Shown here piece after piece: positions 26,388 to 63,562 of a stretch of DNA of 64,000 bases. The notes under the pieces are model-generated. The model did no database searches. It saw only the letters and a program-made list of their open reading frames with translations, and was not told where the DNA came from. The stretch lies in assembly GCA_964419835.1 (NCBI GenBank), contig CAYQPT010000003.1, positions 799 through 64,798 on the forward strand, in the 5' to 3' direction. The DNA comes from an uncultured Candidatus Saccharibacteria bacterium (GTDB taxonomy: Bacteria > Patescibacteriota > UBA1384 > XYA2-FULL-43-10 > 1-14-0-10-43-13). How positions within the stretch are numbered: the first letter of the stretch is position 1; each line of letters starts with the position of its first letter. The translations under genes and the position numbers were made by a program.

Positions 26388-26554
26388 GTTCTTGTTTCCT
26401 CCTGCCTTGCGATAAGGCGAGTCGTTTGAGGCACGATTACCTCGTTATCCCGAAAGTGCGATACTCTCGAAACTGGTTCTAGATTACCATATTTTTTGAT
26501 TTAGTCAATTTAGGATGCAAGATTCCCACCTGCGCGGGAATGACAAAAAGACAC

Positions 26555-30302: not shown

Positions 30303-30427
30303 ATAATTAGGTAACGGTTAGGGCAACGATGCCCGTATCGGCTAGGTTGTTTGGTAGCGTAACCGTAACCCATCCGCCAGCTGGCGGAACGATACTGGTT
30401 TCGTAACCGATTAACGAAAACCGATAA
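30303..30427 (+). repeat. about 120 bp hairpin-rich intergenic element, copy 1 (after rpoB), core palindrome CCGCCAGCTGGCGG
   Basis: Near-identical to 34810-34934. It contains hairpins GGGCA-acga-TGCCC and TTCGT...ACGAA, and a closing helix GGTAACGG/CCGTAACC. Confidence 0.85.
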
Positions 30428-34392: not shown

Positions 34393-34812
34393 ATGCCAAC
34401 AGTAAACCAATTAGTAAAATACGGTCGCAAAAAGACCAAAAATAAAACCAAAACTACCGCTATTAAGACAACTTTTAACTATCTAAAGAACAAACCGGTT
34501 AAGATTGATAGTGGTTGCCCTCAAAAGCGCGGTGTTTGTATTAAAGTCGGAACAATGACTCCTAAGAAACCAAACTCGGCTTTGCGTAAATTCGCCAGAG
34601 TACGGCTTACTAATGGTTTTGAAGTAAATGCATATATTGGCGGAGAAGGCCATCAGCTTCAGGAACACTCGGTTGTGCTTATCCGTGGCGGTCGTGTAAA
34701 AGACCTTCCCGGTATGCGATATCATATTGTCCGTGGTAAGCTTGATTTAACTGGTGTAAAAGACCGCAAGAAAGCCCGAAGCAAATACGGCGTTAAAAAA
34801 GCAGTAGAGTAA
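34393..34812 (+). CDS. rpsL: 30S ribosomal protein S12 with an N-terminal insertion of about 25 aa
   Basis: PQKRGVC...[10 protein letters not shown]...RLTNGFEV...[12 protein letters not shown]...[19 protein letters not shown]. An extra [26 protein letters not shown] segment is present relative to typical S12. Confidence 0.95.
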
Positions 34813-34934
34813 ATAAGGTAACGGCTAGGGTAACGATGCCCGTATCGGTTAGGTTGTTCGGTAACGCAGCCGTAACCCATCCGCCAGCTGGCGGAACGAT
34901 ACTGGTTTCGTAACCGATTAACGAAAAACGATAA
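34810..34934 (+). repeat. about 120 bp hairpin-rich intergenic element, copy 2 (between rpsL and rpsG)
   Basis: About 93% identical to 30303-30427. Compared with copy 1, two sub-sites exchange C and T in a correlated way. Confidence 0.85.
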
Positions 34935-35418: not shown

Positions 35419-35465
35419 GAATACGGATATACGGATTTAACTCAGATATACAGATTTACAAATAA
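35419..35465 (+). repeat. TACGGAT/TACAGAT heptamer repeat element (partial copy of the 95 bp family) after rpsG
   Basis: AATACGGATATACGGATTTAACTCAGATATACAGATTTACA. A hairpin and T-run follow at 35475-35510. Confidence 0.7.
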
Positions 35466-35612
35466 ATAATTATAAAAAAACACCCATTCGACTACGCTCA
35501 GGGTGTTTTTTTGTGGAAGATTGTCCGATGAGATTGAGGATAACCCATGTTATTGTTCGAGATAGGTTCCACAACAATTTAACCGTTTAACAATTTAACT
35601 ATTTAACCAACC

Positions 35613-36059
35613 ATGAACCTAACATCGGACGATTTCAATAATTGTGACTACATTCCGGAGGAATACACTTACGACGGTGAAAATATGAATCCACCGCTCG
35701 AGATTCACGATGTGCCGGAAAAAGCCAAAAGCTTGGCTTTAATTATGGAGGATCCCGACGCCCCTAATGGCGAACTCATTCATTGGCTACTTTGGAATAT
35801 CCCTCCGGCTGAGAAAGAGATCGACAGTGAACAATCATTGCCTTTAAACGGTGTTTGCGGGATTACCAGCGCCGGTAAGCCGGGTTATACCGGCCCCTGT
35901 CCGCCCACAGGAGAGGAACACAGGTATTTTTTTAAGCTTTATGCGTTAGATATCAAGCTTGATCTGTTTTGTAGCGCAAATAAAATTGATCTAAAGCGGG
36001 CAATGGATGGCCATATTATAGAAAAAGCCGAACTAGTCGGACTTTATAGAAGGAAATAG
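35613..36059 (+). CDS. YbhB/YbcL family phosphatidylethanolamine-binding protein (PEBP)
   Basis: DPDAP...HW conserved motif and C-terminal GPCPPTGEEHRYFFKLYALD. Confidence 0.8.
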   Translation: MNLTSDDFNNCDYIPEEYTYDGENMNPPLEIHDVPEKAKSLALIMEDPDAPNGELIHWLLWNIPPAEKEIDSEQSLPLNGVCGITSAGKPGYTGPCPPTGEEHRYFFKLYALDIKLDLFCSANKIDLKRAMDGHIIEKAELVGLYRRK

Positions 36060-36630
36060 ACCACCAATAAAAGGAGTAGCCCACCGTCGTTGGAAGCGAC
36101 GGTGGGCGATGGATCCGAGCGTGCAACCGATTGGTCGCCGCTGAGTGAAACGGACATGTCCGCTGGTATTTCTTACACTCTTTCAGTCAGAGTTGTCGGT
36201 TGCCAGGTCGAGATGAATCCGACCAAAGTTTCGCCGAAAAGCGAGTCAATGCGCACATAATTGTGCGACTGGGAGGTGGGGGCATCTTTCGTCGCCCCCA
36301 GAGTCAAGCAAATTGCCTGCTAGCGAACCCAAGGGCTCGCATTGCTTCCCAAGTCGGGGCGATCATAGACTGACCCTGCGAACCGACCCTCGAAATCGGG
36401 GTCGAAACGCAGTTACTACCGCCAGTGACAATCGCTGCCAGGGCTACTTCCGTTGGTGTAGCACCGACGAGGTAGGGTGTCGCAGACACACGTAAGAGGA
36501 AAATCGAAGCCGTTAAGAGCAAATCTCCCATCCTCCTTTCACAAGCACAACGAACAATACGCTTGATAATAGGAAATATAGCACTAGTAAAAATACCGTG
36601 CAATAGGGTGCAACTGTGTATAACTCATAA

Positions 36631-37752
36631 CTAGATCACTTTCTTATCGGCCAGGTATTTGGCGATGTCATCCACGGTTAATATTCCTACAAGCTGATTA
36701 TCTTCAAGAATGGTGACAAAGCCAACATTTTTTGAAACCATCAGCTTTAATGCGTCAATCGCTTTGTCATTTTCCTGAAGATAAAAATTATGCAAAAAAC
36801 TTCTCATCAATTCGTAAACACGCGTTTCTTCGGTAATATGAGCACTATTTTTACGGATATCATCCAGCGAAATTGTCCCTACAACGGTGTTGTCTAAAAT
36901 CACAGGCAAATTATCGACATTATATTTCAGAAAAAATTCTTCAATAAGAGAATTAATAGTTAAATATGGTGTAACTGTCAGCATATTTCTATTTAAAATC
37001 TGCTTGATTTGTACTTTTTCAAGCGCAGTTCTAATCAAGAGCTCCATATACCCCTGTCCCGCCGCTTGATATAAAAACAAACCGATCAAAATGAGCCAAG
37101 CACCGCTGAACAAATCGGTTGTAATAATCCGTACTATTCCAAATACCACAACTAAAACGGCAATCATTTTACCGCTGTCGCTGGCGATTTGCGTTGCTTT
37201 TTTTAGATTTTTGGTATAGCTCCAAGCAATTGAGCGTAAAATTCTACCTCCGTCGAGCGGGAAACCGGGCAAGAGGTTAAACATACCGAATAGAAGATTG
37301 ATCTGCGATAGAGTCGAAGCAAGCACGGTCACATTAAATAGCAGGCCATGCTGTCTTGTAAGTAAATAAATTACAAAAAATATGCCGGATAAAACAAAGC
37401 TGGTAATGGGACCGGCAATTGCAACGCGGAATTCAGTTCTGGCGTTGTCGGGCTCCTCGAAAAGCTCGGCGATCCCGCCAAATAAAAATAATGTAATACG
37501 ATTAATTTTAAAACCATTCTTTTTAGCTGTGATAGAGTGAGCTAGTTCATGAATGAGAGCGGAAGAAAATAAGAGCACTGAAGTTATGGCGGCGAGAATA
37601 ATATTAGTTTGGATGCTGGCGGTTGAATTTAAAGTAGGGAAGTATTTTGCCGAAAGAAGCCATATTAAAAGTGCGAAAATTATAAACCAAGAATAATCAA
37701 GAAATATCTCGATGCCAAAGAGCTTTCCAATTTTAATACCGCTTGTTCGCAC
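36631..37752 (-). CDS. site-2 protease family (M50) zinc metalloprotease with tandem C-terminal CBS domains
   Basis: HELAHS zinc-binding motif and NLLPGFPLDGGR motif in TM helices, with two CBS-like domains at the C-terminus. GTG start. Confidence 0.8.
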   Translation of the reverse strand: MRTSGIKIGKLFGIEIFLDYSWFIIFALLIWLLSAKYFPTLNSTASIQTNIILAAITSVLLFSSALIHELAHSITAKKNGFKINRITLFLFGGIAELFEEPDNARTEFRVAIAGPITSFVLSGIFFVIYLLTRQHGLLFNVTVLASTLSQINLLFGMFNLLPGFPLDGGRILRSIAWSYTKNLKKATQIASDSGKMIAVLVVVFGIVRIITTDLFSGAWLILIGLFLYQAAGQGYMELLIRTALEKVQIKQILNRNMLTVTPYLTINSLIEEFFLKYNVDNLPVILDNTVVGTISLDDIRKNSAHITEETRVYELMRSFLHNFYLQENDKAIDALKLMVSKNVGFVTILEDNQLVGILTVDDIAKYLADKKVI

Positions 37753-38117
37753 GGGTATGAGAGTAGCAAAGCAAGTTAACTTAATCGTTATGATTTATCA
37801 TAAATATAAAAAATACCTGCAAAAAAGCAGGATTTTTATGTATTTGGTATTATTGAGGGGAGGCGGCTGGCAAGACCGGGGAGGTCTATGCCAGCATGTT
37901 TTGGGGATCGAAAGAAGTCGAATCCAATAGGGGTCTTTGAGGTAATCCCGATAGCTAACTACCGATTGTCGTTTCTGATAGAGTAGCTACCGTAATGAAG
38001 TAGCCAAATCTTTGGTCTCTACAACAAAGAAGTGGCAATGCTGCGACTCGTGCATCTTGCACTCCTCACAACAGCCTTATTTTCGCACAAATTGAGATCA
38101 AAGTCAAGCGTGTCCGA

Positions 38118-38146
38118 TTGACATTTGAGCGCTAGTATGCTATAAT
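38118..38146 (+). promoter_or_regulatory. perfect consensus sigma70 promoter TTGACA-17 bp-TATAAT inside the GC-rich island
   Basis: TTGACA at 38118-38123 and TATAAT at 38141-38146, followed by a 120 nt GC-rich leader with a CCCCTAAGGGG hairpin. Confidence 0.55.
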
Positions 38147-38270
38147 ACTAAAGTAATCTGCTGGAGAAGGGTTCCCCTAAGGGGATCTCATCTCGGGCAG
38201 GCAACATTAGGCAACTGCTCGACATCACATCCGGCCCAGGTCGGATTTCCACGGAAGGACTGGTGAGAGA

Positions 38271-38627
38271 ATGTTCAGAGACAGAAGGTTCATCGCGGTT
38301 GTGCTGCTTGCGTTAGTGGTTGGAGGAGTGTGGGGACTGTTCCACAACGACGTTTTGGGCACCAAGCGTGCTCGAGCCAACTACAATGAAGGTGTCAGAG
38401 CCTTCAAAGCCGACCTGAACGGTCGCGTATGGGTTTCTCACAAGATTCGCACGGGCGAAGGATATTACGACGCCTGTGTGGTCTCCGGATTTCACAAGGA
38501 GATAACGGATTATCGGCGTGATGTGATCGAGGAAACGCTTCAAGCGTATCCCCTTAACACTCACATCGATGTTACCTTTCTCCACCCCGGAGATGTTGTC
38601 TGGGTGCCTGTCGGTCGAGACGACTGA
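38271..38627 (+). CDS. hypothetical signal-anchored small protein (GC-rich island ORF)
   Basis: N-terminal TM helix RRFIAVVLLALVVGGVWGLF. Lies downstream of the perfect promoter. Coding status is uncertain. Confidence 0.35.
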   Translation: MFRDRRFIAVVLLALVVGGVWGLFHNDVLGTKRARANYNEGVRAFKADLNGRVWVSHKIRTGEGYYDACVVSGFHKEITDYRRDVIEETLQAYPLNTHIDVTFLHPGDVVWVPVGRDD

Positions 38628-39603
38628 TTGGCCCGCAAGTGGCTTCGGTCACAGAGTAGTTTCCCGAGCGTGCTTTCACGCTCGGGAACATCCCCCTTTT
38701 CTTCTCATGTGTGGAATCAGTTGAATTCATCATGAGCAGAGAAAGAAACGTCTGCCGGTTAGGGGAAGAAAGATGAAATTGCATCGCATTATTTACGTCT
38801 TCATTGTCCTTTCCACCTTCCAGTATGCTCGTGTGTGGAACGGCGACCTTGCGTCGTATGTACGTTTACACACGAACAATCATGGATACGCGGCATTATC
38901 CGCGTTGCTGGCCTACCTGACAGAACTCGCTCTTGCGAGCTGGGTAATGGTAACAATAACCGCGCGCGAGCGACAGGACCAAGCCAGAGAGAAGGTCAGC
39001 AATGCTGGCCCTCGAGCGCCTGGCCCGAACGATGTAGCGCCTCTCTAAACTAGCAGAGTCGCTAACCGGCTTTGCATTGACTGCTTCCCGAGTGAGGTTA
39101 TGGAGAATTAGAATGCGAACAACAGTAGTTGTCGACTCAACGAGGAGAGATAGCTGCACAAATGGGACCGATTCCCCGACAATACTGGGGCTCAAAGAGG
39201 CCCTCGAACTCATCAAAGTGATGATCGAGGACACCGGTCAGATGTTCGCAGCTCTCCCTCTTACGTATGGCCAGAAAGGAGACTGGCCGACGAAGTACAT
39301 CATATATTCTGCGCACTATATGGCAGGATAATATGATAACTCGTCATGGACCGGTCCGCACGTACGGGTGCGGACCATTAACCTCGAGAATCGAATCATC
39401 CGCCAGCTGGCGGATTGGATTTTCGAGAGTTGATTAAATAACTGATTAGATCCCTTGTTCATCAAAATAGTTTGATGAAGTAGAGGACTAATTAAGAGAG
39501 ATATCCACACCTTACGAGGTGTGATTTTTTTACACAAAAATGTTTTGGGTGTAGAATTGGGGTGGAGAAATTCTCTGATAGTTCTACCGACAGGGGGTAC
39601 GAT

Positions 39604-39870
39604 ATGTTCACGGAAATGTCACGGGATCATTTCTATCTGCTAGTACAGACAGCCGTACTACTCATCTCTGCTCTGCTTGCTCTGCAGTACTTCGGACTCA
39701 ATGCGATTGTCCATTCTTGGCACACTTGGGTCTTAATGGGTGCTCTCGTGCTATGCTGGCTGAACGCCATACTTCGTAATGGCAGGCCACTGTCTTGGGA
39801 ACCGAGCGCACTCTTGATGTTCGTGCTGGTAGCTCTCAGCTGCATCCAGGTAGGGGTAGGCAAGCATTAG
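39604..39870 (+). CDS. hypothetical small membrane protein (GC-rich island ORF; the ORF extends upstream to 39562)
   Basis: Three hydrophobic helices. GGGGGT lies 5 nt before the ATG at 39604. Confidence 0.3.
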   Translation: MFTEMSRDHFYLLVQTAVLLISALLALQYFGLNAIVHSWHTWVLMGALVLCWLNAILRNGRPLSWEPSALLMFVLVALSCIQVGVGKH

Positions 39871-40232
39871 GTTCTCATTCTGCAGGCATTAGTAATCCTG
39901 CAAACCCGTCCTGCACTATTCAGTGCAGGTTCGAGGTTTGTAGCAGATTTGTACCATATGCGATAGGATCTCTCGCCTTCCTCGATCCACCCACCGGTGG
40001 GCTCGTAATGGGTCGGGATGACAGGGGGGGGTTGTTGGGGGAAACAATTGACAGCGCAGGAAAAATTATGTTATTATTGCTCTGAAAGAGGGGCGTTTTT
40101 GTTTTTACTACGTAAAAAAATTCTTAATTTTTAAGTATTAATTTCTAAATTAAGTCCAAAATTTATTAAAATATTTAAAATTGAATAAAAATTTAAAATT
40201 ATAAATTAGAAATTCAATTCCGAAGGAATTCC

Positions 40233-42305
40233 ATGGCACGAGATTACACCCTAGAAAAAGTTAGAAACTTTGGCACAATTGCCCACATTGACGCCGGTAA
40301 AACCACTGTTACTGAAGGCATTTTGTACATTTCTGGAAAAGTGCACAAAATCGGTGAGGTGCACGAAGGCGAAGCAACAATGGACTGGATGGAACAAGAG
40401 CGCGAACGTGGTATTACCATCACCTCTGCTGCTACAACCGCATTCTGGAAAGATAACCGTATTAATATCATTGACACTCCCGGTCACGTTGACTTCACAG
40501 TTGAAGTTGAACGGTCTCTTCGCGTACTCGACGGCGCTGTTGTTATTCTCGACGGAAAAATGGGTGTTGAGCCACAGTCGGAAACTGTTTGGCGACAGGC
40601 CGACAAATATCAAGTTCCTCGAATGTTTTTCTGCAATAAAATCAACCAAACCGGCGGTGATTTTTACCGCTCTTTGGACTCAGTTCATGAGAGATTATCT
40701 AAAAACGCCTACCCAATTCAGCTTCCAATCGGTTTCGAACAAGCCATCAACGGTGTTGTCGATTTAGTGGAAATGAAAGCATTAACCTATAAAGAATATA
40801 CAGACAAAGCCCTTACGGTTGGCGAAATTCCTGCCGATATGGTTGAAAAGGCCAACGAGTATAGAGAGAAATTAGTTGAAAAAGTTGTCGAGTATGATGA
40901 CGCAGCTATGGAAAAATACTTGGGCGGTGAAGAAATCTCTAACGACGAACTAAGGAAATTGATTCGAAAAGCTACCATTTCAGGCGAATTTTACCCAATG
41001 CTCGGTGGAGACGGAAGAGGCGTAATCGTTTCTGCCTTGCTTGATGCCATTGTTGATTATTTGCCTTCGCCGCTTGATGTTGTTCCTGCTAAAGCAACCG
41101 ATGCTAAAACCGGCGAAGAACTTGAGATCAAACCTACTGATACTGAGCCTCTTGCTGCTTTGGCATTCAAAGTTGCTTCAGACCCATTTGTTGGCAAATT
41201 GATCTTCTTCCGCGTTTATAGAGGCGTTATGAAAAAAGGATCCTACGTATTAAACGCAACTTCCGGAGAAAAAGAGAGAATCGGCCGAATTGTTCGATTA
41301 CACGCTAATCATCGGGAAGAAGTTGACGAAGTTTTTGCAGGTGAAATTGCCGCTGCGGTAGGACTGGCCAAGACAACCACAGGTGACACTCTTTGTGAAC
41401 TAACTGCTCCTGTAATTCTAGAAAAAATTGTATTTCCAGAGCCAGTTATTGATATTGCAATCGAGCCAAAAACTAAGGCCGACCAAGAGAAAATGGGTAT
41501 TGCTCTGCAGAGATTGGCCGAAGAAGATCCAACTTTTAGAGTTAGGAGCGATGAAGAAACAGGACAAACCATTATTGCCGGTATGGGCGAACTTCACCTT
41601 GAGATCATTGTCGACCGAATGAAACGCGAATTCAAAGTTGAAGCAAACGTTGGACAACCTCAGGTTGCTTTCCGTGAAACCTGCAAACAAGAAGTTACTC
41701 AAGAAGGTAAATATATCCGTCAGACCGGTGGCCGAGGACAATACGGTCATGTTTGGATCAAACTCATCCCTCAGGAAGCAGGTAAGGGCTTTGAATTTAT
41801 CAACAAAATTACCGGTGGTGCAATTCCTAAAGAGTTCATCAATCCTGTTCAGGCCGGCATTAAAGAAGCAATGGAACGGGGAGTAATGGCCGGTTATCCG
41901 GTTGTCGACGTTGCCGTTGAGCTTTACGATGGTTCCTTCCACGAAGTTGACTCTTCTGAAATCGCCTTTAAAATTGCCGCTTCGACAGCATTTCAAGATG
42001 GTTTTAAGAAAGCAGACCCTGTTATTCTAGAGCCAATCATGAAAGTTGAAGTAACAACTCCTGAAGAATCAATGGGTGATATTATCGGCGACCTTAACGC
42101 TAAGCGTGGTCAAATTCACAAAATGGAAGACCGAGCCAACTATAAAGTTATAAGAGCAGATGTACCACTTGCCTCAATGTTTGGTTATACTACAAACTTG
42201 CGCTCTATGTCACAGGGACGAGCATCTTCCGTAATGGAATTTTCACATTATGCCGAAGTTCCTGCGCATGTGGCAAAAGAAATCATCGAAAAACGATCAA
42301 AATAA
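40233..42305 (+). CDS. fusA: translation elongation factor G
   Basis: AHIDAGKTT and DTPGHVDF GTPase motifs and the full five-domain EF-G architecture. Confidence 0.97.
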
Positions 42306-42405
42306 TACGGATATACGGATTACAACAAGATATAGGGATGTACGGATAAATAACAAATCTGTAAATCTGTAAATCAGCGAAAGATCTGTAAATCTGTATT
42401 GCAGA
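42306..42405 (+). repeat. about 95 bp TACGGAT/ATCTGTA inverted heptamer-repeat element (after fusA)
   Basis: TACGGATATACGGAT...GATGTACGGATAA...ATCTGTAAATCTGTAAATCAGCGAAAGATCTGTAAATCTGTA. The arms pair with G-U wobbles only in the + strand RNA. Confidence 0.8.
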
Positions 42406-43699: not shown

Positions 43700-43790
43700 A
43701 TTTTCAGTTGTCAGTAAATCAGTAAATCGGTTGTCAGTTCTTATACTTACAACTGATTCACTTACAACTTACAACTAGTAATATCGTTCG
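43700..43790 (+). repeat. intercistronic imperfect palindrome of tandem heptamers (GTAAATCAG arm / CTTACAACT arm) after tuf
   Basis: CAGTTGTCAGTAAATCAGTAAATCGGTTGTCAG...ACTTACAACTGATTCACTTACAACTTACAACT. Confidence 0.75.
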
Positions 43791-43855: not shown

Positions 43856-44179
43856 ATGCCAGAGAAAAGTGCAGTAAAACAGAAGATTAGGATCAAGCTT
43901 AAAGCTTATGATTATCGAATCATCGACAAATCAGCTGAGCAGATCATTCAAACCGCTATCCGATCAGGCGCAGCTGTCGCCGGACCGGTTCCGCTTCCTA
44001 CAGAAACAAGCAAGGTGACTGTTATCAAGTCTCCCCATGTTCACAAGGATTCACGCGAACAGTTTGAAATGAGAGTTCACAAACGATTGATTGATATCTT
44101 AAATCCTACTTCCAAAACAATCGATAACCTTATGGGGCTTGACCTTCCGCACGGCGTTGACATTGAGATCAAAATGTAG
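43856..44179 (+). CDS. rpsJ: 30S ribosomal protein S10
   Basis: [20 protein letters not shown]...GPVPLPT...[13 protein letters not shown]. Confidence 0.95.
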
Positions 44180-45188
44180 TATGCTGGTCTAAGCGATCAG
44201 TTATATTTGCGCTTAATAAAAAGGTCCTGGATATCGTCTCGCCAATCGGCGGATGGATCCAAGACATATTATTTATGTAGCAGGCAAATAAATGACGATT
44301 AGTCATTTATTGTTTGCCACTTAAGTAGGCAAAAACCTTAACATTATTACTGTCCTTAGGCCGTCTGGGATCCTGCATGACCAGGATGGATTGGGCGGCT
44401 CTCGCTCTCCCTTTATGGGGAGATCGCTGAGATTGAGCGTACAACGCTCTCTAAGGATGAGGTCTCGGAGATCTTACCTAAGCCCGGTGGCTGCTGGGGG
44501 ATCACTTCTTGGGTTTGAAATCTGAGACTTCAATTTACCACGCAGTGCGTGTAATATCGCCTGTGTGGGAGGGTTATGTGCTTACTTTTCCTGGATTGGA
44601 GACTCGCAAACGTTGCCTTTCAGATCAGGTAAGTATCATCACCCCCCGGAGAGCAGCCCACTTAGCGACCCTCGAGTTGCGGGTATAGGGGCGACTCTCT
44701 CACTCTTTCTGGCAGTTCTTGGAAAGATGAGAGTTTTGAGTAAGAGGCTCTACCCTCTCCGGGAAACAAGTTCCATCAGTCTTTCGCACAGCGTTTGTAT
44801 TGCGTAGTGCCGCTGTGGGGAAGGAAGCAGAATCAGCACTCAGGTCGGTTGATTCTGTCAAGTAGCAGGGTACTCCCCCTGCTGCTACCAAGGGGTATTA
44901 TACCCCTTCTGTCGGAGTAGGTGGTGCGTTCAGTGCTCCTGCACCACCTACTCAAAATCTTTAACAATTTATTGTTTGAACAAAGTGAGAACTAAAGCAA
45001 TTTACTTATCGCTCCGCTCGAAGAATAAATAGGATCCTTAAACAAGATACAGATCCCGAAACAAGTTTGGGATGACGCAAAGCGTCAGTTCAGGATGACG
45101 ACAAAATTATCATTCGCTATCTGTAAATTCGTAAAATTAGTAATCTCCTGCAGCAGCAGGATCCCGCTTCCAGCGGGGCATAGTCACG
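44180..45188 (+). ncRNA. about 1 kb GC-rich, ORF-free, hairpin-dense segment inserted between rpsJ and rplC: candidate large structured RNA or non-coding inserted element of unknown class
   Basis: No ORF longer than 80 aa on either strand, and none with protein-like composition. GC is about 50% against about 38% in the flanks. Many perfect stems: GGCAAATAAATGAC/GTCATTTATT-TTTGCC at 44280-44318, GAGTAGGTGGTGC/GCACCACCTACTC at 44908-44950, AGCAGGG/CCCTGCT, AAGGGG/CCCCTT and GAGCG/CGCTC. Confidence 0.3.
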
Positions 45189-45935
45189 ATGAAATTCATA
45201 TTAGCAAGAAAAATTGGGATGACACGCGTATTCGACCAAGACGGCCGAAGTTTTGCAGTTACTAAAATTGCCGCTTTGCCTTGCTCTATCTCACAGGTTA
45301 AGGACAAAGAGAAAGACAAATACAAAGCAGTTCAAGTTTCCGCCTATAAAGGCGAGACCTCGCCCGTTAAGGGCGGGAGTGCCATCAAAAGGAAAACCGT
45401 GAAGATTGCTGAATTCAAAGAGCAAAACAGTAAAAGATATAAAATGGGTGAAGATGTTAACCTGAAACAGTTTAAGAAAGACGAAATGGTAACTGTTGAA
45501 GGCACAGGAAAAGGCAAAGGTTTTGCCGGTACAGTTAAACGACATGGTTTTGCCATGGGTCCTGTTTCACACGGCTCAAAGAACATTCGAAAGCCCGGTT
45601 CAATCGGCGGCGGATATCCACAAAGAGTCGTAAAAGGACGAAAAATGGCCGGACGGATGGGTGGACAAAATGTTACTGTTAAAAACCTAAAAATTGTTGA
45701 TGTAGATGACCAGTTTATCTTGATTGCAGGAAGCATTCCCGGACCAAACAAATCAATCGTAAAAGTTTATGGCAAAGGCGAAAAAGCCGAAGAAGTAATT
45801 GACCACGCAGCCGAGGAAGAAAAATTGGCACAGGAAAAGATGCTTGAAGCTGACAAAGAAGCCAAAGAGGAGAAGAAAGAAGATCAAGTTGTGAGTGAAG
45901 CTTCACCGGTCGAAGAGTCAACAGAAGATAAATAA
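45189..45935 (+). CDS. rplC: 50S ribosomal protein L3 with a K/E-rich C-terminal extension
   Basis: MKFILARKIGMTRVFD...TVEGTGKGKGFAGTVKRHGF. Confidence 0.95.
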   Translation: MKFILARKIGMTRVFDQDGRSFAVTKIAALPCSISQVKDKEKDKYKAVQVSAYKGETSPVKGGSAIKRKTVKIAEFKEQNSKRYKMGEDVNLKQFKKDEMVTVEGTGKGKGFAGTVKRHGFAMGPVSHGSKNIRKPGSIGGGYPQRVVKGRKMAGRMGGQNVTVKNLKIVDVDDQFILIAGSIPGPNKSIVKVYGKGEKAEEVIDHAAEEEKLAQEKMLEADKEAKEEKKEDQVVSEASPVEESTEDK

Positions 45936-46012: not shown

Positions 46013-46687
46013 ATGAAAGTATCAGTTTTTACAAAATCGGGTGAGAAAAAAGAAGATTTGACACTGTCAAACATATTCGGCGTAGAAGTTAGCGGAAAAG
46101 CGGCTACTCTTTATATTAATTATTTGCGTGCAGCGCTCAGGTTTCCTGTTGCAAACACAAAAAACCGAGGCGAGGTATCTGGCGGTGGACGCAAACCTTA
46201 CAGACAAAAAGGTACTGGTAATGCTCGAGCCGGTTCAAGCCGTTCCCCTCTATGGGTTGGCGGTGGTGTAACATTTGGCCCGACAAACGACCAGAACTTT
46301 CACAAAAGAATCAATTCAAGAGAGAAAAGACGGGTTATCCTAGGTCTTATTTCGGAGTTGATTAAAGACAACAAAATGATTGTCTTGGAAGGAATTTCCG
46401 AGGAAATCAAAAAGACTAAAGAAGCAGCACAAATTTTATCCAGCGTTAAAGCCGAAGGTAAAGTTTCAGTAATCCTGTCCAAGGAAAACGGCACAGCATA
46501 TGTATCTTTCAGAAACATTGCCGGTGTTAAAATCATGAGCCCTTCAAAACTGGACATGATTTACCTGACATCTTCCGATAAAGTTGTTGTTTCAAAAGAA
46601 GCACTTGCACAATTGGAAAGTATTTTTACCCCAAAAGACAAGTCACTTTCAGATTCAACGGAAATAGAAAAAGGAGAGCATAAGTAA
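46013..46687 (+). CDS. rplD: 50S ribosomal protein L4
   Basis: [21 protein letters not shown] motif. Confidence 0.95.
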
Positions 46688-46761
46688 ATCAGTAAATCAG
46701 TTGTCAGTAAATCAGATACAAAACTTACAACTTATTCACTTACAACTTACAACTTAAAATC
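46688..46761 (+). repeat. intercistronic heptamer-repeat palindrome (GTAAATCAG / CTTACAACT family) after rplD
   Basis: ATCAGTAAATCAGTTGTCAGTAAATCAG...AACTTACAACTTATTCACTTACAACTTACAACTT. Confidence 0.75.
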
Positions 46762-47121
46762 ATGAGTAATATCATCAAAAAAGTATTAGTTTCAGAAAAG
46801 AGTTTTAGAGATGCCACTTTAGGCAAATATACTTTTGTTGTTGACTCTGGCGCCGATAAAGAAGGCATTGCTAGAATGTGCGAAAGATTGTTTAATGTAA
46901 CTGTTCTTTCTGTTAATTCAATGAATGTTATGGGTAAAGTTAAGACCACCAAACGGATCAAAGGAAGAAGAAGCGATTTCAAAAAAGTCATCTTGACTCT
47001 AAAACCTGGAGACAAAATAGATTTATTTGAAACAGAAGACAAAGAGGACAAGAAAAAAGACAAAAAGGCAGAAAAGAAACTAGAAAAGTCAAAAGTTAAA
47101 GATAAAGATAAGGCAAAATAA
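46762..47121 (+). CDS. rplW: 50S ribosomal protein L23 with a lysine-rich C-terminal extension
   Basis: VLVSEKS...KYTFVVDSGADKEGIARMCERLFNVTVLSVNSMN, followed by a KKDKKAEKKLEKSKVKDKDKAK tail. Confidence 0.9.
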   Translation: MSNIIKKVLVSEKSFRDATLGKYTFVVDSGADKEGIARMCERLFNVTVLSVNSMNVMGKVKTTKRIKGRRSDFKKVILTLKPGDKIDLFETEDKEDKKKDKKAEKKLEKSKVKDKDKAK

Positions 47122-48330: not shown

Positions 48331-48429
48331 ATATTAATCAAGTAGTCAGTAAATCAGTTGTCAGTAAATCAGCAGATATAAAACTTACAACTTATTCACT
48401 TACAACTTACAACTTACAACTGAAATATT
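48331..48429 (+). repeat. intercistronic heptamer-repeat palindrome (GTAAATCAG / CTTACAACT family) after rpsS
   Basis: AGTAGTCAGTAAATCAGTTGTCAGTAAATCAGCAG...AAACTTACAACTTATTCACTTACAACTTACAACTTACAACTG. Confidence 0.75.
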
Positions 48430-48847: not shown

Positions 48848-49486
48848 ATGGGACAAAAAGTCAATCCAACATCAATGCGACTGAAGATCAACGAGAGCTG
48901 GAAATCTCTCTGGTTTGGCGGACAAAATTACGCCGACAACCTTATATCTGACTTGAAAATCAGAAAAATGTTGGAAACACGGCTTAAAGAAGCATCACTT
49001 TCTGAGATTATCATCCGACGAGATGCAAATAAGGTTACAATTGACATTCATTCCGGTAGACCCGGTGTTATCATCGGACGAGGCGGAGCAGGTACAGATG
49101 AATTGAAGAAAATACTTCAGAAAAGCTTAACCGGACGAGTTCAGATAAACATCATTGAAGTCAAAAAGCCCGATGCAGATGCCAGCATAATCGCACAAAA
49201 TGTTGCCTCCCAGATTGAAAGAAGAATTCCATTCCGAAGAGCAATCAAGCAGGCAATTGAGAAAGCAAAGGAATCCGGAGTTCAAGGTATTAAAATCCTT
49301 GTCTCAGGACGATTAAACGGTGCAGACATTGCAAGGTCAGAAAAAAATTCCTTCGGAACAGTTCCGCTTTCAATGTTTAAGAGCAATATTGAGTTCAAAC
49401 ATATCCAAGCCCATACCACTTTCGGTGTAATTGGAGTCAAAGTCTGGGTGTACAAGGGCGAACGAGGAATGAAAGAAGAAGCTTAA
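48848..49486 (+). CDS. rpsC: 30S ribosomal protein S3
   Basis: MGQKVNPTSMRL, KH domain and the GRPGVIIGRGG motif. Confidence 0.95.
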   Translation: MGQKVNPTSMRLKINESWKSLWFGGQNYADNLISDLKIRKMLETRLKEASLSEIIIRRDANKVTIDIHSGRPGVIIGRGGAGTDELKKILQKSLTGRVQINIIEVKKPDADASIIAQNVASQIERRIPFRRAIKQAIEKAKESGVQGIKILVSGRLNGADIARSEKNSFGTVPLSMFKSNIEFKHIQAHTTFGVIGVKVWVYKGERGMKEEA

Positions 49487-49580
49487 ATACAAATATACGG
49501 ATTTATAAACAAGATATACAGATGTACGGATAATCTGTAAATCTGTAAATCCGAGCAAGATCCGTAAATCGGTATAAAGG
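49487..49580 (+). repeat. about 95 bp TACGGAT/ATCTGTA inverted heptamer-repeat element (after rpsC)
   Basis: ATACGGATTTATAAACAAGATATACAGATGTACGGATAATCTGTAAATCTGTAAATCCGAGCAAGATCCGTAAATCGGTA. Confidence 0.8.
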
Positions 49581-50917: not shown

Positions 50918-50999
50918 TCAGTAAATCAGTAAATAAGTAAATCAGTAAATAAGTTCAAAACAGACAACTGATTCACTGACAACTGACAACTAAAACAAC
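50918..50999 (+). repeat. intercistronic heptamer-repeat palindrome (GTAAATMAG / CTGACAACT family) after rplN
   Basis: CAGTAAATCAGTAAATAAGTAAATCAGTAAATAAG...CAACTGATTCACTGACAACTGACAACT. Confidence 0.75.
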
Positions 51000-51320
51000 A
51001 TGAAGATTAAAAAAAATGACAATGTAATGATCATCGCAGGCAAAGACAAAGGCAAAACCGGAGTCGTTGAGCGAGTTTTCCCATCAATGGGCAAACTGGT
51101 TGTCAAAGGAATTGCTTTGGCTAAGAAACATGTTAAGCCAAGCAAAAAAAATCCTTCAGGCGGTATCATTGATATAAATCAAAAAATACAAGCATCCAAC
51201 GCAATGGTAGTCTGCCCAAGCTGCGGCAAGCCAACCAGAGTTGGTTATAATGTTTCGGAAAAAGGTAAAATTCGCATCTGCAAAAAATGCAGCCAAAGCG
51301 TTGAAGGCGGGACTAAATAA
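51000..51320 (+). CDS. rplX: 50S ribosomal protein L24 carrying a CxxC...CxxC zinc-ribbon insertion
   Basis: KOW-type N-terminus (MKIKKNDNVMIIAGKDKGKTGVV) and a VVCPSCGKPTRVGYNVSEKGKIRICKKC four-cysteine motif. Confidence 0.85.
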   Translation: MKIKKNDNVMIIAGKDKGKTGVVERVFPSMGKLVVKGIALAKKHVKPSKKNPSGGIIDINQKIQASNAMVVCPSCGKPTRVGYNVSEKGKIRICKKCSQSVEGGTK

Positions 51321-52055: not shown

Positions 52056-52156
52056 TAGAGGATAAGTAAATCAGTAAATAAGTTGTAAGTAAATAAGTTC
52101 TTGTAAATAAACAGTAACCGAGAACTGACAACTGACAACTGACAACTAAGGAAATT
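52056..52156 (+). repeat. intercistronic heptamer-repeat palindrome (GTAAATAAG / CTGACAACT family) after rpsZ
   Basis: AAGTAAATCAGTAAATAAGTTGTAAGTAAATAAG...GAACTGACAACTGACAACTGACAACT. Confidence 0.75.
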
Positions 52157-52537
52157 ATGACAGATCACATCGCAGATTTATTGGTAAGAATCAAAAATGC
52201 TTCACTTGTTAAAAAGTACGAAGTCACTCTTCCATTTTCAAAAATGAAAGAGGCAATTTTGAAAATCCTTGAACGCGAAGAATTCATTAAGAATATTGAA
52301 GTTTCAGGAGAGGCCAATAAAAAAGTGATTAGCTTCCGAATTTCACATACAAAAACCCCAACCCACATCAAACAGATTTCAAAGCCGGGACAGAGAATCT
52401 ATGTCAAAAGCAAAGATATCCCAAATCCGCTTAGAGGTCTAGGACTTGTAATAATCTCAACCCCAAAGGGTGTTATTACTGCAAAAGAGGCCTCAAAAAC
52501 AGGATTGGGCGGGGAATTAATCTGTGAAATCTGGTAG
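52157..52537 (+). CDS. rpsH: 30S ribosomal protein S8
   Basis: MTDHIADLLVRIKNA... Confidence 0.95.
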   Translation: MTDHIADLLVRIKNASLVKKYEVTLPFSKMKEAILKILEREEFIKNIEVSGEANKKVISFRISHTKTPTHIKQISKPGQRIYVKSKDIPNPLRGLGLVIISTPKGVITAKEASKTGLGGELICEIW

Positions 52538-52631
52538 AGAGCAAGTAGTCGGTAAATCAGTAGTCAGTAAATCAGTAATAAATTAATAACTTACAACTTA
52601 TTCACTTACAACTGACAACTAAGGAAAAAAA
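52538..52631 (+). repeat. intercistronic heptamer-repeat palindrome (GTAAATCAG / CTTACAACT family) after rpsH
   Basis: AGTAGTCGGTAAATCAGTAGTCAGTAAATCAG...AACTTACAACTTATTCACTTACAACTGACAACT. Confidence 0.75.
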
Positions 52632-53168
52632 ATGAGCAGAATAGGCAAAAGACCAATAAAAATTAAAGAGGGCGTAACAATTGAAATTACGCCATCAAAA
52701 GTAGTCGCTAAAAAAGATCAAAATTCTTTGGAATTAAAGATTCCCGAAGGAATAGTTGTCAAGCAAGACGGGAACGATCTTTTGGTTACAAGAAAAGACG
52801 AATCGAAGGATTTAAGATCAAAACATGGTCTAATTGCACGACTGCTCAAGAACATTATTACCGGAGTCCACGAAGGTTTCGTTCGAGAGCTTGAGTTCAA
52901 GGGAACTGGTTACAGGGCATCTGTTAATGGCAATGAAATCGTCCTAAACATGGGCTATTCGCACGAAATTACTCTTCCTATTGGAGAAGGCATTACAGTG
53001 CAAGTTAAGAAAAATTCAATCATATTGGCCGGAATGGATAAAGAGCGGCTTGGCGCACTAGCAGCGTCTATCCGAGAAGTTAGACCGCCGGAAGTTTATA
53101 AGGGCAAGGGCATTAAATATAAAGAAGAGTTGATTAGGCGAAAGGCCGGCAAGAAAGCCGCAGCATAA
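52632..53168 (+). CDS. rplF: 50S ribosomal protein L6
   Basis: MSRIGKRPIKI...; two L6 repeats. Confidence 0.95.
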   Translation: MSRIGKRPIKIKEGVTIEITPSKVVAKKDQNSLELKIPEGIVVKQDGNDLLVTRKDESKDLRSKHGLIARLLKNIITGVHEGFVRELEFKGTGYRASVNGNEIVLNMGYSHEITLPIGEGITVQVKKNSIILAGMDKERLGALAASIREVRPPEVYKGKGIKYKEELIRRKAGKKAAA

Positions 53169-53262
53169 AAATACAGATATACGGATAATGACAAGATATA
53201 CGGATGTACGGATGATCTGTAAATCTGTAAATCCGCGAAAGATCTGTAAATCCGTATTAAGG
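53169..53262 (+). repeat. about 95 bp TACGGAT/ATCTGTA inverted heptamer-repeat element (after rplF)
   Basis: ATACAGATATACGGATAATGACAAGATATACGGATGTACGGATGATCTGTAAATCTGTAAATCCGCGAAAGATCTGTAAATCCGTA. Confidence 0.8.
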
Positions 53263-53585: not shown

Positions 53586-53673
53586 TAAATCAGTAAATCA
53601 GTAAATCAGTAAATCAGCACTATTAAAATAGTAACTGAGAACTGAGAACTGACAACTTACAACTAAGGATAAT
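53586..53673 (+). repeat. intercistronic heptamer-repeat palindrome (AGTAAATC x 4 / CTGAGAACT family) after rplR
   Basis: AGTAAATCAGTAAATCAGTAAATCAGTAAATCAG...AACTGAGAACTGAGAACTGACAACTTACAACT. Confidence 0.75.
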
Positions 53674-54321
53674 ATGACAGCAGCAGAAAAAAACATAATG
53701 AGACAACGCGGTTCTTACGAAAAAAGAGAACCAAAAGAATATGACGAAAAGGTGATTGAAGTCGCCAGAGTTTCGCGTGTGGTTAAAGGTGGTCGAAGAA
53801 TCCGGTTTCGAGCTTTAGTTGTGATTGGTAATCACAACGGAAAAGTCGGGATGGGTATTGCAAAAGCAACCGAGGTTTCAGAAGCAGTCAGGAAAGCCAC
53901 TACTTACGCTAAAAAGCACATTATTATAGTCCCAATCATTAGCGGCACTATTCCTTATGAAATCACCATGAAACATGGTGGAGCACGAGTGCTTTTAAAA
54001 CCCGCAACCGAAGGTACTTCAGTTGTTGCCGGTGGAAGCATAAGGTCTGTAGCTGAACTAGCTGGTATTTCAGATCTTCTGTCAAAATCACTTGGAAGCT
54101 CAAACAAGATTAACTGTGTAACCGCCACCATTAAAGCGCTTTCATCCTTCAATCCCGACATTGTTGAAAAGGTAAGAAAAGCTTCAGAACGATCAAAGCC
54201 AAAGGGCGAGCCGGTTGTGGTCAAAGAGGCGCCTGTCCCCGAAGAAAAAGTGGAAGAGAAAGTTGCTCCGGAGAAACCAAAAAAGTCAGTAAAAGCTAAA
54301 AAGGCAGCTGCCAAGAAATAG
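53674..54321 (+). CDS. rpsE: 30S ribosomal protein S5 with K/E-rich N- and C-terminal extensions; rplO follows directly, with no L30 gene between
   Basis: VIEVARVSRVVKGGRRIRFRALVVIGNHNGKVGMGIAKATEV... The C-terminal tail is rich in K, E, P and A. Confidence 0.95.
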   Translation: MTAAEKNIMRQRGSYEKREPKEYDEKVIEVARVSRVVKGGRRIRFRALVVIGNHNGKVGMGIAKATEVSEAVRKATTYAKKHIIIVPIISGTIPYEITMKHGGARVLLKPATEGTSVVAGGSIRSVAELAGISDLLSKSLGSSNKINCVTATIKALSSFNPDIVEKVRKASERSKPKGEPVVVKEAPVPEEKVEEKVAPEKPKKSVKAKKAAAKK

Positions 54322-59888: not shown

Positions 59889-60296
59889 ATGGCCAAAGAA
59901 ACACCTAAAAAGTCAACTAAAAAAATAGTCAAAAAGAGATCGAAAACCCCCGTTCTTTCAGGAAGCATTTTCGTTCAATCATCTTTCAACAACACGATTA
60001 TTTCAATTACCGATGAAACCGGAAACGTTATTGCCTGGGCAACAGCGGGTTCCAGTGGCTTTAAAGGTGCTAGAAAATCCACTCCTTACGCTGCTCAGAT
60101 AGCAGCAGCAGCTGCAATTGAAAAGGCAAAAGCAAGAGGATTTTCCAAAGCCAAGGTTTATGTAACCGGTGTCGGATCAGGACGAGAATCCGCCGTTAGA
60201 GCCATCACAAACACTGACATTGAAGTTACATTAATCAAAGATACAACACCGGTAGCGCACAATGGCTGCCGTCCTAAAAAAGCCCGAAGAGTATAA
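59889..60296 (+). CDS. rpsK: 30S ribosomal protein S11
   Basis: S11 family sequence (...TPYAAQIAAAAAIEKAKARGF...VGSGRESAVRAI...). Confidence 0.95.
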   Translation: MAKETPKKSTKKIVKKRSKTPVLSGSIFVQSSFNNTIISITDETGNVIAWATAGSSGFKGARKSTPYAAQIAAAAAIEKAKARGFSKAKVYVTGVGSGRESAVRAITNTDIEVTLIKDTTPVAHNGCRPKKARRV

Positions 60297-60384
60297 ACAG
60301 TAAATAAGGATTAAGTAAATATGTAAATAAGTAATATGCAACCAAACTTACTACTTATTCACTTACAACTTACAACTTAAAATT
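60297..60384 (+). repeat. intercistronic repeat palindrome (GTAAATAAG arm / CTTACAACT arm) after rpsK
   Basis: CAGTAAATAAGGATTAAGTAAATATGTAAATAAGTAAT...AACTTACTACTTATTCACTTACAACTTACAACTT. Confidence 0.7.
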
Positions 60385-60978
60385 ATGATAGACGCATGCA
60401 AAAAATGTAGAAGAGAAGGCGAGAAGTTACTCCTTAAAGGTGAGCGATGTTTGGGACCAAAATGTGCAGTCGTAAAAAGACCCTATGCACCAGGTCAACA
60501 TGGACAAGCTCGTTTTACTAAAATGAGTGAGTATGGAAAGCAGCTCAGGGAAAAACAAAAAGCCCGACGCATTTATGGTATGGGAGAAACTCAGTTTGCT
60601 AATTACGCTGAAGCAGCCGGAAAAGCCGAGGGTAATACTTCATTAAACCTTATGAAATTGCTTGAAACACGTCTAGATAATGTTGTTTACAGACTAAACT
60701 TTGCAGATTCAAGATCAAAGAGCCGGCAAATGGTTTCTCATGGTCTTGTTCTTGTTAACGGCAAAAAGCTTTCACTTCCTTCATATCACTTAAAAGAAGG
60801 TGATGAAATTAGCTTAAAACACCCAGATAAAGAAGCCGATGCAAGAAAAGTAAATATTCCTTCATGGATGGAGCTAGATGCTAAAAAAGGTATCGGCAAA
60901 GTCAAACATATTCCAACGCGGGAAGAAATTGATACAACTGTGAATGAGAATTTAATAATTGAGTTTTACTCTAGATAA
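60385..60978 (+). CDS. rpsD: 30S ribosomal protein S4 (zinc-binding form)
   Basis: CKKCRREGEKLLLKGERCLGPKC zinc motif and an S4 domain. Confidence 0.95.
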   Translation: MIDACKKCRREGEKLLLKGERCLGPKCAVVKRPYAPGQHGQARFTKMSEYGKQLREKQKARRIYGMGETQFANYAEAAGKAEGNTSLNLMKLLETRLDNVVYRLNFADSRSKSRQMVSHGLVLVNGKKLSLPSYHLKEGDEISLKHPDKEADARKVNIPSWMELDAKKGIGKVKHIPTREEIDTTVNENLIIEFYSR

Positions 60979-63367: not shown

Positions 63368-63562
63368 CGAGCCCATTGAGGGACAAAAGGGGTCGGGAAA
63401 AAGGATTTTTCCCGTGTGGGGTGACCTGAGCGGAGCGAGAATCAGAGGGCGGAAGCCCTATGAAGAGCACAAGCGACCCACGAGTGGGCCAAGAGGTAAT
63501 ACCCTTTTGTCATTCCCGAGAAGTCGGGAATCTTGCACAGCAAATATCAGACTATATACATC

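Follow-up and report, generated by a model that had tools for sequence, protein, structure and literature searches.

Within a stretch of 64,000 nt from contig CAYQPT010000003.1 (assembly GCA_964419835.1; this whole stretch is hereafter termed the window), which derives from a Saccharibacteria-related lineage of Patescibacteria, we analyzed the 1009-nt spacer that separates rpsJ, encoding ribosomal protein S10, from rplC, encoding L3. We tentatively read this spacer, with a confidence somewhat short of even, as a transcribed leader or spacer RNA of the L3-L4-L23-L2... operon, made up of an attenuator-like hairpin and of stem-loop modules with a fast turnover. It is neither a foreign insert nor a single conserved large RNA of the ribozyme kind. 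A first-pass annotation of the same DNA had described the segment as a GC-rich, hairpin-dense insert and had offered three explanations for it, namely a new large structured RNA, a degenerate selfish element, or a processed leader inside the ribosomal operon. The last of these fits best, the processing itself being presumed.

On the sequences compared, the long S10-L3 spacer is a trait of the clade and not an insertion peculiar to one genome, since every clade relative has a long gene-free spacer (243-1042 nt) following S10 and preceding L3. The L3 proteins of the nearest species-level genomes are 62% and 57% identical to that of the window, and the relatives used here are contigs from a large protein database with L3 71-89% identical, plus L171 and the outgroup L002; the ten relative contigs that were fetched represent nine distinct relatives, and a metagenome scan for further homologues returned distant relatives only. 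The idea of an insert had been founded on the premise that S10 is normally followed directly by L3. This holds for many Actinobacteria (3-13 nt) but not for Flavobacteriia (about 120-650 nt) or for other Patescibacteria (83-547 nt), and the gap of less than 50 bp that the first-pass annotation had proposed to look for in relatives is found neither in the clade nor in these other Patescibacteria.

The sequence-conserved parts of the spacer are the first ~150 nt, which hold a promoter-like site and the hairpins termed H1 and H2, and a few anchors farther on (Table 1). The promoter-like site is of the sigma-70 type and overlaps the end of rpsJ: its -35 element TTGACA (44157-44162) lies within the rpsJ codons GTT GAC ATT and is followed, after a 17-nt spacer, by the -10 element TATGCT (44180-44185) immediately 3' of the TAG stop. 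The synonymous sites of GGC GTT GAC ATT are invariant in 10 of 10 clade members while neighbouring synonymous sites vary freely, and TAG|TAnnnT is retained in the clade though its three middle bases change. This pattern of constraint suggests that the site acts as a promoter. The outgroups L001 and L002 deviate here; in L001 there is a hairpin resembling a terminator, and a promoter-like site of its own lies farther downstream, and by eye L002 looks similar. A small hairpin, H0, has counterparts at the same position in L161, L166, L163, L164, and L168 (alignment A1, judged by eye and uncounted).

H1 is an irregular hairpin with the 5' strand GUCCUGGAU-A-UCGUC-U-CGCC and the 3' strand GGCG-GAUGG-AUCCAAGAC, including conserved GGAUAYC and GGRUCY elements and a bulged A, and it is followed by the U-rich tract AUAUUAUUUAUGU. 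In alignment A2, 87.5% of the cells are paired, as compared with at most 50% when the register is slid, and the apical helix covaries (CGCC/GGCG, CCGA/UCGG, CUUGA/UCGGG, GGUCGCC/GGCGACC). With the corresponding covariance model, R1, the window, L002, and seven clade relatives reach 49-70 bits for H1 (E 1e-10 to 1e-16). Scores are low in L164 and L170, both of which bear large apical insertions (22-27 bits; E 0.02 and 9e-4), and none of ~160 other loci is matched. The outgroup L001 carries an H1-like-looking hairpin ~45-80 nt ahead of L3, with a U6 run 5 nt past the stem, that R1 does not detect. H2 forms with differing sequences in 8 lineages (-18 to -31 kcal/mol), and its 3' strand terminates in an invariant UGCCA; the "15 bp stem" of the first-pass annotation belongs to this hairpin; located at 44280-44317, it in fact counts 16 bp and is interrupted by a bulge of 1 nt. 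Folding without the 5' arm of H2 yields a smaller hairpin, H3, in 8 of 8 lineages (-5 to -7 kcal/mol; UUGCC/GGCAA, UGCC/GGCA, UUGCC/GGUAA), so that competition between H2 and H3 might, according to these folding models, operate as a switch. A conserved structured element with covariation, as sought in an autoregulatory leader, is present in the form of H1, whose helix covaries, and of H2, which forms in 8 lineages. By analogy, the promoter-like site, H1, and H2 have the look of a regulatory leader that is specific to the lineage.

The central part of the spacer, termed the core, is distinguished by its composition and folding. The GC content is 47.2% in the spacer and 52.4% in the core (44340-44955), as compared with 26-36% in ordinary intergenic regions; the raised value previously noted is real, but the background is 41.4% over the window rather than 38%. 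On the operon (+) strand, the minimum free energy (MFE) of the core is -277 kcal/mol, dinucleotide shuffles giving -214 ± 7 (z -8.5), and on the - strand it is only -219 kcal/mol (z -5.2); the advantage of the + strand amounts to 61 kcal/mol for the whole spacer and 58.6 kcal/mol for the core alone. In this fold, 68% of the bases are paired, G-U accounts for 13% of the pairs, and A is down to 20%. The + strand folds more stably than the - strand in all 12 of the S10-L3 spacers compared, and the core z scores of relatives are -5.8 (L161), -8.1 (L166), -7.1 (L170), and -12.5 (L002). These statistics bear out the proposal of a hairpin-dense, structured RNA and place it on the operon strand. An enrichment in GGATCC/GATC, present in the window and L161, was dropped as a meaningful feature because it is absent from other relatives.

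The core is best described as a mosaic of modules, and a global alignment of the cores of relatives could not be attained, only alignments module by module (A3, A4). The closest relative, L161, encodes an identical S10 (92-95% identity for the remaining clade members) and shares with the window the closing stem and the three-hairpin layout of domain A, with unrelated hairpin sequences, as well as the closing stem of domain B, with a different interior. Core similarity between the two is limited to the anchors ATTACYGTCCTTAG, CTAAGGATGARGTCTCG, and YGAGACTTCAATTT, which are the closing stems of domains A and B. Module C-D has 23 consensus pairs in alignment A4, of which 6 show compensatory changes, and its model (R2) matches only the window (74 bits), L166 (110 bits), and L163 (102 bits); it was not found by this model in L161 or in five others. 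Domains E-I have no blastn match in any relative.

This turnover is faster than that of silent sites. Between the window and L161, four-fold-site identity is 75-95% (tuf, S10, L3, L2, S19, L22, S3) and only 26% of the spacer is alignable; between L164 and L168 these values are 71-88% and 37%. L164 and L169 have a different core module set, and L171 has H1 without the GC-rich core, from which it follows that the core is dispensable. L3 is the most diverged gene in the pair formed by the window and L161, and nearly so in L164/L168, where S19 is marginally lower. Its four-fold-site identity is 0.73-0.75 in these two independent pairs of near relatives, other operon genes mostly showing 0.80-0.95 (S19 of L164/L168, 0.71); the low identity of L3 beside the spacer hints, as far as sequence comparison goes, at recombination imports centred on the spacer. 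The module slot is occupied by tRNA genes in three relatives, i.e. a Phe-like one with an 8-nt anticodon loop in L166, Thr-GGU in L167, and Lys-CUU in L170, and by tRNA-like sequences in two more. The gene in L166 (1876-1954; Rfam, 52 bits) looks like tRNA-Phe(GAA) and has the anticodon loop UUUGAAAA, whose 8 nt could reflect an indel, a pseudogene, or a tRNA that reads quadruplets. The tRNA-like sequences of L161 (1741-1888) and L163 (3598-3723) have good acceptor and T arms, carry insertions of 61 nt and 39 nt near position 27-29, and are recognised neither by Rfam nor by ARAGORN at default settings.

In each of 10 lineages the GC-rich core closes with a strong hairpin (-20 to -29 kcal/mol) located 6-239 nt ahead of the L3 start. 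Its sequence is conserved among L163, L166, L168, and L169, and is different in the window and L161. In the window this is the 13-bp perfect stem GAGTAGGTGGTGC/GCACCACCTACTC, which is real as the first-pass annotation had it, but lies at 44915-44953 and not at 44908-44950; A-rich sequence follows, with no U tract. Farther downstream, L164 has a counterpart of block 45028-45146, the identity being 69% over 121 aligned columns; the block includes the stem AUCCUKAA/UUCAGGAU followed by UGAC, and L167 shows an equivalent stem, UUCUGAG/CUCAGAA. The 8-nt repeat units AUCUGUAA AUUCGUAA are found immediately 5' of the rplC start. Immediately past the terminal hairpin, the string CUUUAACAAUUUAU (44961-44974) is boxA-like: it nearly matches GCUCUUUAACAAUUUAU, the boxA of E. 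coli rrn operons, and adjoins the region of the gene for S10/NusE. It also resembles the local TTTAACAA repeat units and is not conserved in relatives, and a function for it was rejected on the latter ground. A scan of the + strand up to rplC revealed no terminator-like site past 44201 and no promoter-like site past 44185, so that the simplest assumption is transcription of the core together with L3, as part of a 5' untranslated region.

Table 1 Features of the S10-L3 spacer and of its two flanking genes in the window.
Feature	Position	Strand	Remarks
rpsJ (S10)	43856..44179	+	open reading frame of 107 aa; upstream neighbour
Sigma-70-type promoter-like site	44157..44185	+	scan match at 10/12 positions
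H0, small 7-bp hairpin	44183..44201	+	overlaps the -10 region and the likely transcript start
H1, irregular hairpin conserved in the clade	44220..44276	+	alignment A2, model R1
H2, long hairpin (16 bp + 1-nt bulge)	44277..44320	+	forms in 8 lineages
H3, small alternative hairpin UUUGCC...GGCAAA	44313..44333	+	in competition with the H2 base
Core domain A, multi-branch junction	44352..44458	+	closing stem GUCCUUAG/CUAAGGAU and three hairpins; in MFE and centroid folds
Core domain B, long hairpin	44459..44531	+	closed by GAGGUCUCG/UGAGACUUC
Core module C-D	44525..44652	+	helix CARUUUACCACRC..CGYGU..CURUGUGGGAGRG, then hairpin D
Core domains E-I	44646..44913	+	junction closed by CCGGAGAG/CUCUCCGG and four more hairpins; from the fold
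Terminal 13-bp perfect GC-rich hairpin	44915..44953	+	-25 kcal/mol; closes the core
AT-rich 3' part of the leader	44954..45188	+	block 45028-45146; 8-nt repeat units near rplC
rplC (L3)	45189..45935	+	downstream neighbour; then L4, L23, L2, S19, and the rest of the operon

In the mechanism that we propose, transcription would start at the promoter overlapping the last rpsJ codons and the stop. H1 would form first, followed by the U-rich tract, and the two may constitute an attenuator or a binding site for a ribosomal protein, by analogy with L4 control at the E. coli S10 leader. The long hairpin H2, with the small competing H3, would come next, and then ~620 nt of GC-rich stem-loop modules, the strong closing hairpin, and the AT-rich stretch leading to the rplC start. 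Selection on the core seems to have favoured sense-strand folding rather than sequence: the modules would be retained for their stable folding on that strand and be replaced, gained, and lost among lineages. Such folding may be what enables an essential operon to keep so long an untranslated tract, possibly by resisting Rho and RNases, by offering processing sites (as the tRNAs of relatives would), or by placing a protective 5' hairpin on the L3 mRNA.

Several points weigh against this interpretation. The transcript start, read-through, and processing are predictions from the sequence, and a ligand of H1 is hypothetical. The tract after H1 is U-rich yet does not amount to a canonical terminator tail, and the scanner made no call there. 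Module C is strongly conserved in sequence among the window, L166, and L163 despite saturated synonymous sites, which points to a specific function that structure for its own sake does not explain. The gain and loss of modules and the raised divergence of L3 would also fit mobile elements or recombination imports. Finally, the covariation statistics are weak because there are nine distinct relatives only.

The Rfam 15 covariance models (at the gathering threshold) to which the window was compared include RNase P, transfer-messenger RNA (tmRNA), signal recognition particle (SRP) RNA, 6S, group I and II introns, T-box, riboswitches, ribosomal-protein leaders, GOLLD, ROOL, OLE, HEARO, and raiA. 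The whole window yielded no match at gathering score, and over 44000-45400 there were only nine noise matches (13-16 bits) at E up to 10; in eight relatives the sole matches were the three spacer tRNAs of L166, L167, and L170. The earlier failure to recognise RNase P, tmRNA, SRP, or an intron is confirmed, in that this Rfam scan found no family. ARAGORN detected no tRNA or tmRNA in the window and, with introns allowed and a relaxed score, produced one low-scoring call only. No second copy of the core modules was retrieved by blastn of all spacers against the 64-kb window and 185 loci; phage and plasmid collections held nothing similar to the core, and a pattern scan of viral contigs for module C gave no extra copy.

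Two alternatives to a leader concern mainly the core. One possibility, which we consider unlikely, is that selfish or foreign DNA has accreted at a permissive hot spot to form a core that performs no function itself and is tolerated since hairpin-rich RNA leaves the operon undisturbed; the sources could be palindromic GC clusters, repetitive extragenic palindromic (REP) or miniature inverted-repeat (MITE)-like elements, scars of tRNA-targeted integration, or decayed tRNA genes. The degenerate selfish element of the first-pass annotation thus stays a live rival for the core. A turnover that far outpaces point substitution, patchy modules, and a slot that holds different tRNAs and odd tRNA-like sequences by lineage are all in its favour, as is the L3 gene beside the spacer, most diverged or nearly so in two pairs of near relatives and suggestive of recombination imports. 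Other GC-rich DNA of the window looks acquired, e.g. a 4.8-kb island between S7 and fusA, and the genome has repeated intergenic palindromic elements (a 123-nt repeat at 30305/34812 and the 26516/63505 pair). Nevertheless, the absence of a second module copy from the collections searched is not expected of such elements, neither terminal inverted repeats nor target-site duplications were seen at the core boundaries, and DNA decaying in an AT-rich genome would be expected to lose GC and structure; the sense-strand asymmetry and the core z scores of -5.8 to -12.5 in the lineages indicate selection at the RNA level. The other possibility, which we also judge unlikely, is that the core, perhaps with H1 and H2, is an independent, new, large, modular, trans-acting non-coding RNA resembling GOLLD or ROOL, which would be transcribed from the promoter that overlaps the rpsJ end and then be excised from the operon transcript. 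The very strong core z scores and the sense-strand bias across lineages would agree with this, as would a locus that apparently has its own promoter, tRNA genes and tRNA-like modules inside or beside cores, a module C and a terminal hairpin conserved in sequence across saturated divergence, and a domain A junction whose architecture is common to the window and L161 despite differing hairpins. GOLLD and ROOL are said to adjoin tRNA genes. Moreover, searches for large RNAs are known to target intergenic regions that are long and GC-rich within AT-rich genomes (PMC6429828, PMC8632094). Against it, there is no clade-wide core: modules are patchy, with two different module sets and none in L171, and near relatives are almost wholly different, unlike the situation for OLE, GOLLD, or ROOL; no terminator lies past the core, and Rfam matches are lacking even at E up to 10, the gap having given noise only. 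The proposal of a new large structured RNA is therefore upheld in part, for a structured RNA without a known family, but not for a conserved large fold, which the relatives with their mosaic cores do not have. A version in which the S10-L3 slot as a whole is a new large modular RNA with its own promoter, whose stem-loop and tRNA-like modules are exchanged under diversifying selection and which acts in trans, for instance in phage conflicts or by serving as a decoy or scaffold of a tRNA-related kind, appears to us rather improbable.

Two further explanations have much less to recommend them. It is very improbable that the core is a diverged form of a known RNA missed by the models, for example RNase P RNA, tmRNA, SRP RNA, a T-box, or a split tRNA containing a group I intron. 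The 12-mer GGAAGGAAGCAG in the core (~44820-44831), which equals part of E. coli 4.5S RNA, would speak for it, but the GGAA of this 12-mer cannot close as the tetraloop of SRP helix 8, and the SRP reading was ruled out on this basis. The group I introns that Patescibacteria carry within their tRNA genes are often missed by standard tools, some being visible to a special model only (PMC13011429), yet RF00028 has no match in the gap at E up to 10 and no tRNA exon halves (T arm, acceptor) flank the core. In addition, the window has no Rfam match at gathering score, those of the gap at E up to 10 being noise, and a core differing among near relatives is unexpected for RNase P, SRP, or tmRNA. Still more remote is a protein-coding gene that has decayed or that a frameshift or an alternative genetic code keeps from view. 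Reassignment of UGA opens a 160-codon frame, but the genes around the spacer are readable in the standard code, and no convincing gene appears in the gap when UGA, UAG, or UAA is recoded. The longest stop-to-stop frame of the gap spans 93 codons (80 aa counted from a start codon) and has no relative among 5.8 billion predicted proteins; the open reading frame (ORF) fragments of the gap have no Pfam match, no frame is common to relatives, independent assemblies are identical in sequence, and the fold statistics indicate RNA. The earlier statement that the spacer holds no credible ORF accordingly stands.

The boundaries of the spacer are as first described, rpsJ ending at 44179 and rplC starting at 45189, 1009 nt farther on; gene callers place the rplC start at 45219. 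Orthologues of this rpsJ product are annotated with PF00338. The spacer was recovered at 100% identity in independent assemblies of Sequence Read Archive runs, which excludes an assembly artefact as its source: two contigs cover it in full, a third independent contig covers it from 44442 on, and a fourth, from the same run as the third, covers its first 208 nt. Several contigs (L180, L182-L185) end 507-583 nt past S10, i.e. inside the core, and breaks within the core are also found where the L181 contig stops (window position 44387) and where the L174 contig begins (44442); low coverage of hairpin-rich DNA or strain heterogeneity could be the cause.

Other intergenic regions of the window also carry repeats or structure. 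Spacers of the ribosomal-protein operons contain inverted arrays with an 8-nt period at 43705-43787, 46675-46765, 48332-48425, and 50928-51002, and the same family recurs at 52057-52163, 52535-52622, 53592-53680, and 60295-60388; a second family is located at 35420-35469, 42298-42400, 49482-49575, and 53156-53258. With units AGTAAATC.../...ACTTACAAC or ATACGGAT.../...ATCTGTAA, these arrays would form long imperfect intercistronic hairpins with one regular mismatch per unit, and we know of no described equivalent. A 123-nt repeat (93% identity) occupies 30305-30427 in the rpoB-rpoC spacer and 34812-34934 in the S12-S7 spacer. It is centred on the perfect palindrome CCGCCAGCTGGCGG, which is also present at 22746 and 39400, and its centre, on the opposite strand, resembles the H1 apex, 25 nt showing 80% complementarity; at E up to 1, R1 gave no match to the repeat. 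Two small palindromic elements in inverted orientation, at 26516-26548 and 63505-63537 in distant intergenic regions, form TTCCC...GGGAA hairpins that are 88% complementary, which suggests a small family of repeated elements.

The 4.8-kb insertion between rpsG (S7) and fusA (35419-40232) encodes a PEBP-family protein and, on the - strand, an M50 peptidase-CBS protein, and it includes a GC-rich stretch of 2.5 kb whose small membrane-protein-like ORFs have no Pfam match and which is preceded by a consensus promoter-like TTGACA-17-TATAAT at ~38120-38148. It looks like DNA acquired within the str operon. Region 37753-40232 was considered as a second giant RNA and rejected, its small membrane-protein-like ORFs and consensus promoter giving it the look of an acquired gene island. 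A second GC-rich (51-55%) and ORF-poor region, 36060-36630, is structured on both strands (z about -4.6) and has no Rfam match; its - strand end shows a strong hairpin and a U run (~36075-36105) downstream of the M50 peptidase gene, and it could be a 3' untranslated region or a small RNA. The first-pass annotation had connected the S10-L3 spacer with 36100-36150 through a shared pair of motifs. Both strings are indeed present, GATGGATCC(R)AG at 44251 and 36108 and CCAATCGG at 44242 with a reverse-complement match at 36127, but this 9-mer and 8-mer differ in order and orientation, and R1 detects no H1-like hairpin in the 36100 region; the sharing is thus probably due to chance, and a functional link was rejected.

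The control of ribosomal-protein synthesis in Patescibacteria is essentially unknown, and this locus offers a clade-specific candidate regulator (promoter, H1, and H2) ahead of L3 and L4. It also places up to 1 kb of hairpin-saturated untranslated RNA, sometimes with tRNA genes, in an essential operon of a reduced genome, where remodelling outpaces change at silent sites. Should the core prove functional in its own right, it would be a new large RNA; otherwise, it shows which sequence can persist at such a place. Saccharibacteria are now genetically manipulable (PMC10633639), which makes both readings of the core testable.

The closest known parallel is the leader of the E. coli S10 operon, which, as we propose for the present spacer, is an untranslated leader ahead of L3-L4-L23-L2... 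with a conserved hairpin and a U-rich tract soon after the promoter. That leader mediates NusA-dependent attenuation and translational control by L4; the regulated gene set is the same here, and attenuation, as well as any ligand, is presumed by analogy. The E. coli leader sits 5' of rpsJ and measures ~170 nt, whereas the spacers described here lie 3' of rpsJ, span 243-1042 nt, and have no sequence similarity to it. Ribosomal-protein regulatory RNAs are lineage-restricted, those of E. coli not being conserved outside Gammaproteobacteria (PMC3616713). In their organisation, the spacers are reminiscent of rRNA-operon leaders and 16S-23S internal transcribed spacers, which are also long, untranslated, highly folded, and, as the spacers here presumably are, co-transcribed, and which combine short conserved boxes with stems that vary, tRNA genes that may or may not be present, and lengths that shift greatly among close relatives; the operon here is one for proteins, however, with no rRNA nearby and a boxA-like string that is not conserved. 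REP elements and the related BIME (bacterial interspersed mosaic elements), as well as organelle GC clusters, provide a further likeness as GC-rich palindromic hairpins that lie within operons of AT-rich genomes, vary strongly among relatives, and are able to stabilise upstream mRNA. They are multi-copy families with a recognisable consensus, in contrast to the modules found here, which have no second copy in the window or the 185 loci. Lastly, GOLLD, ROOL, and OLE (Rfam, PMC5737381, PMC12286853) are similar in size (~600 nt), in their many stems, and in having no ORF, but they possess a core conserved across species, whereas the core described here has no match to their covariance models, varies among near relatives, and is absent in L171.

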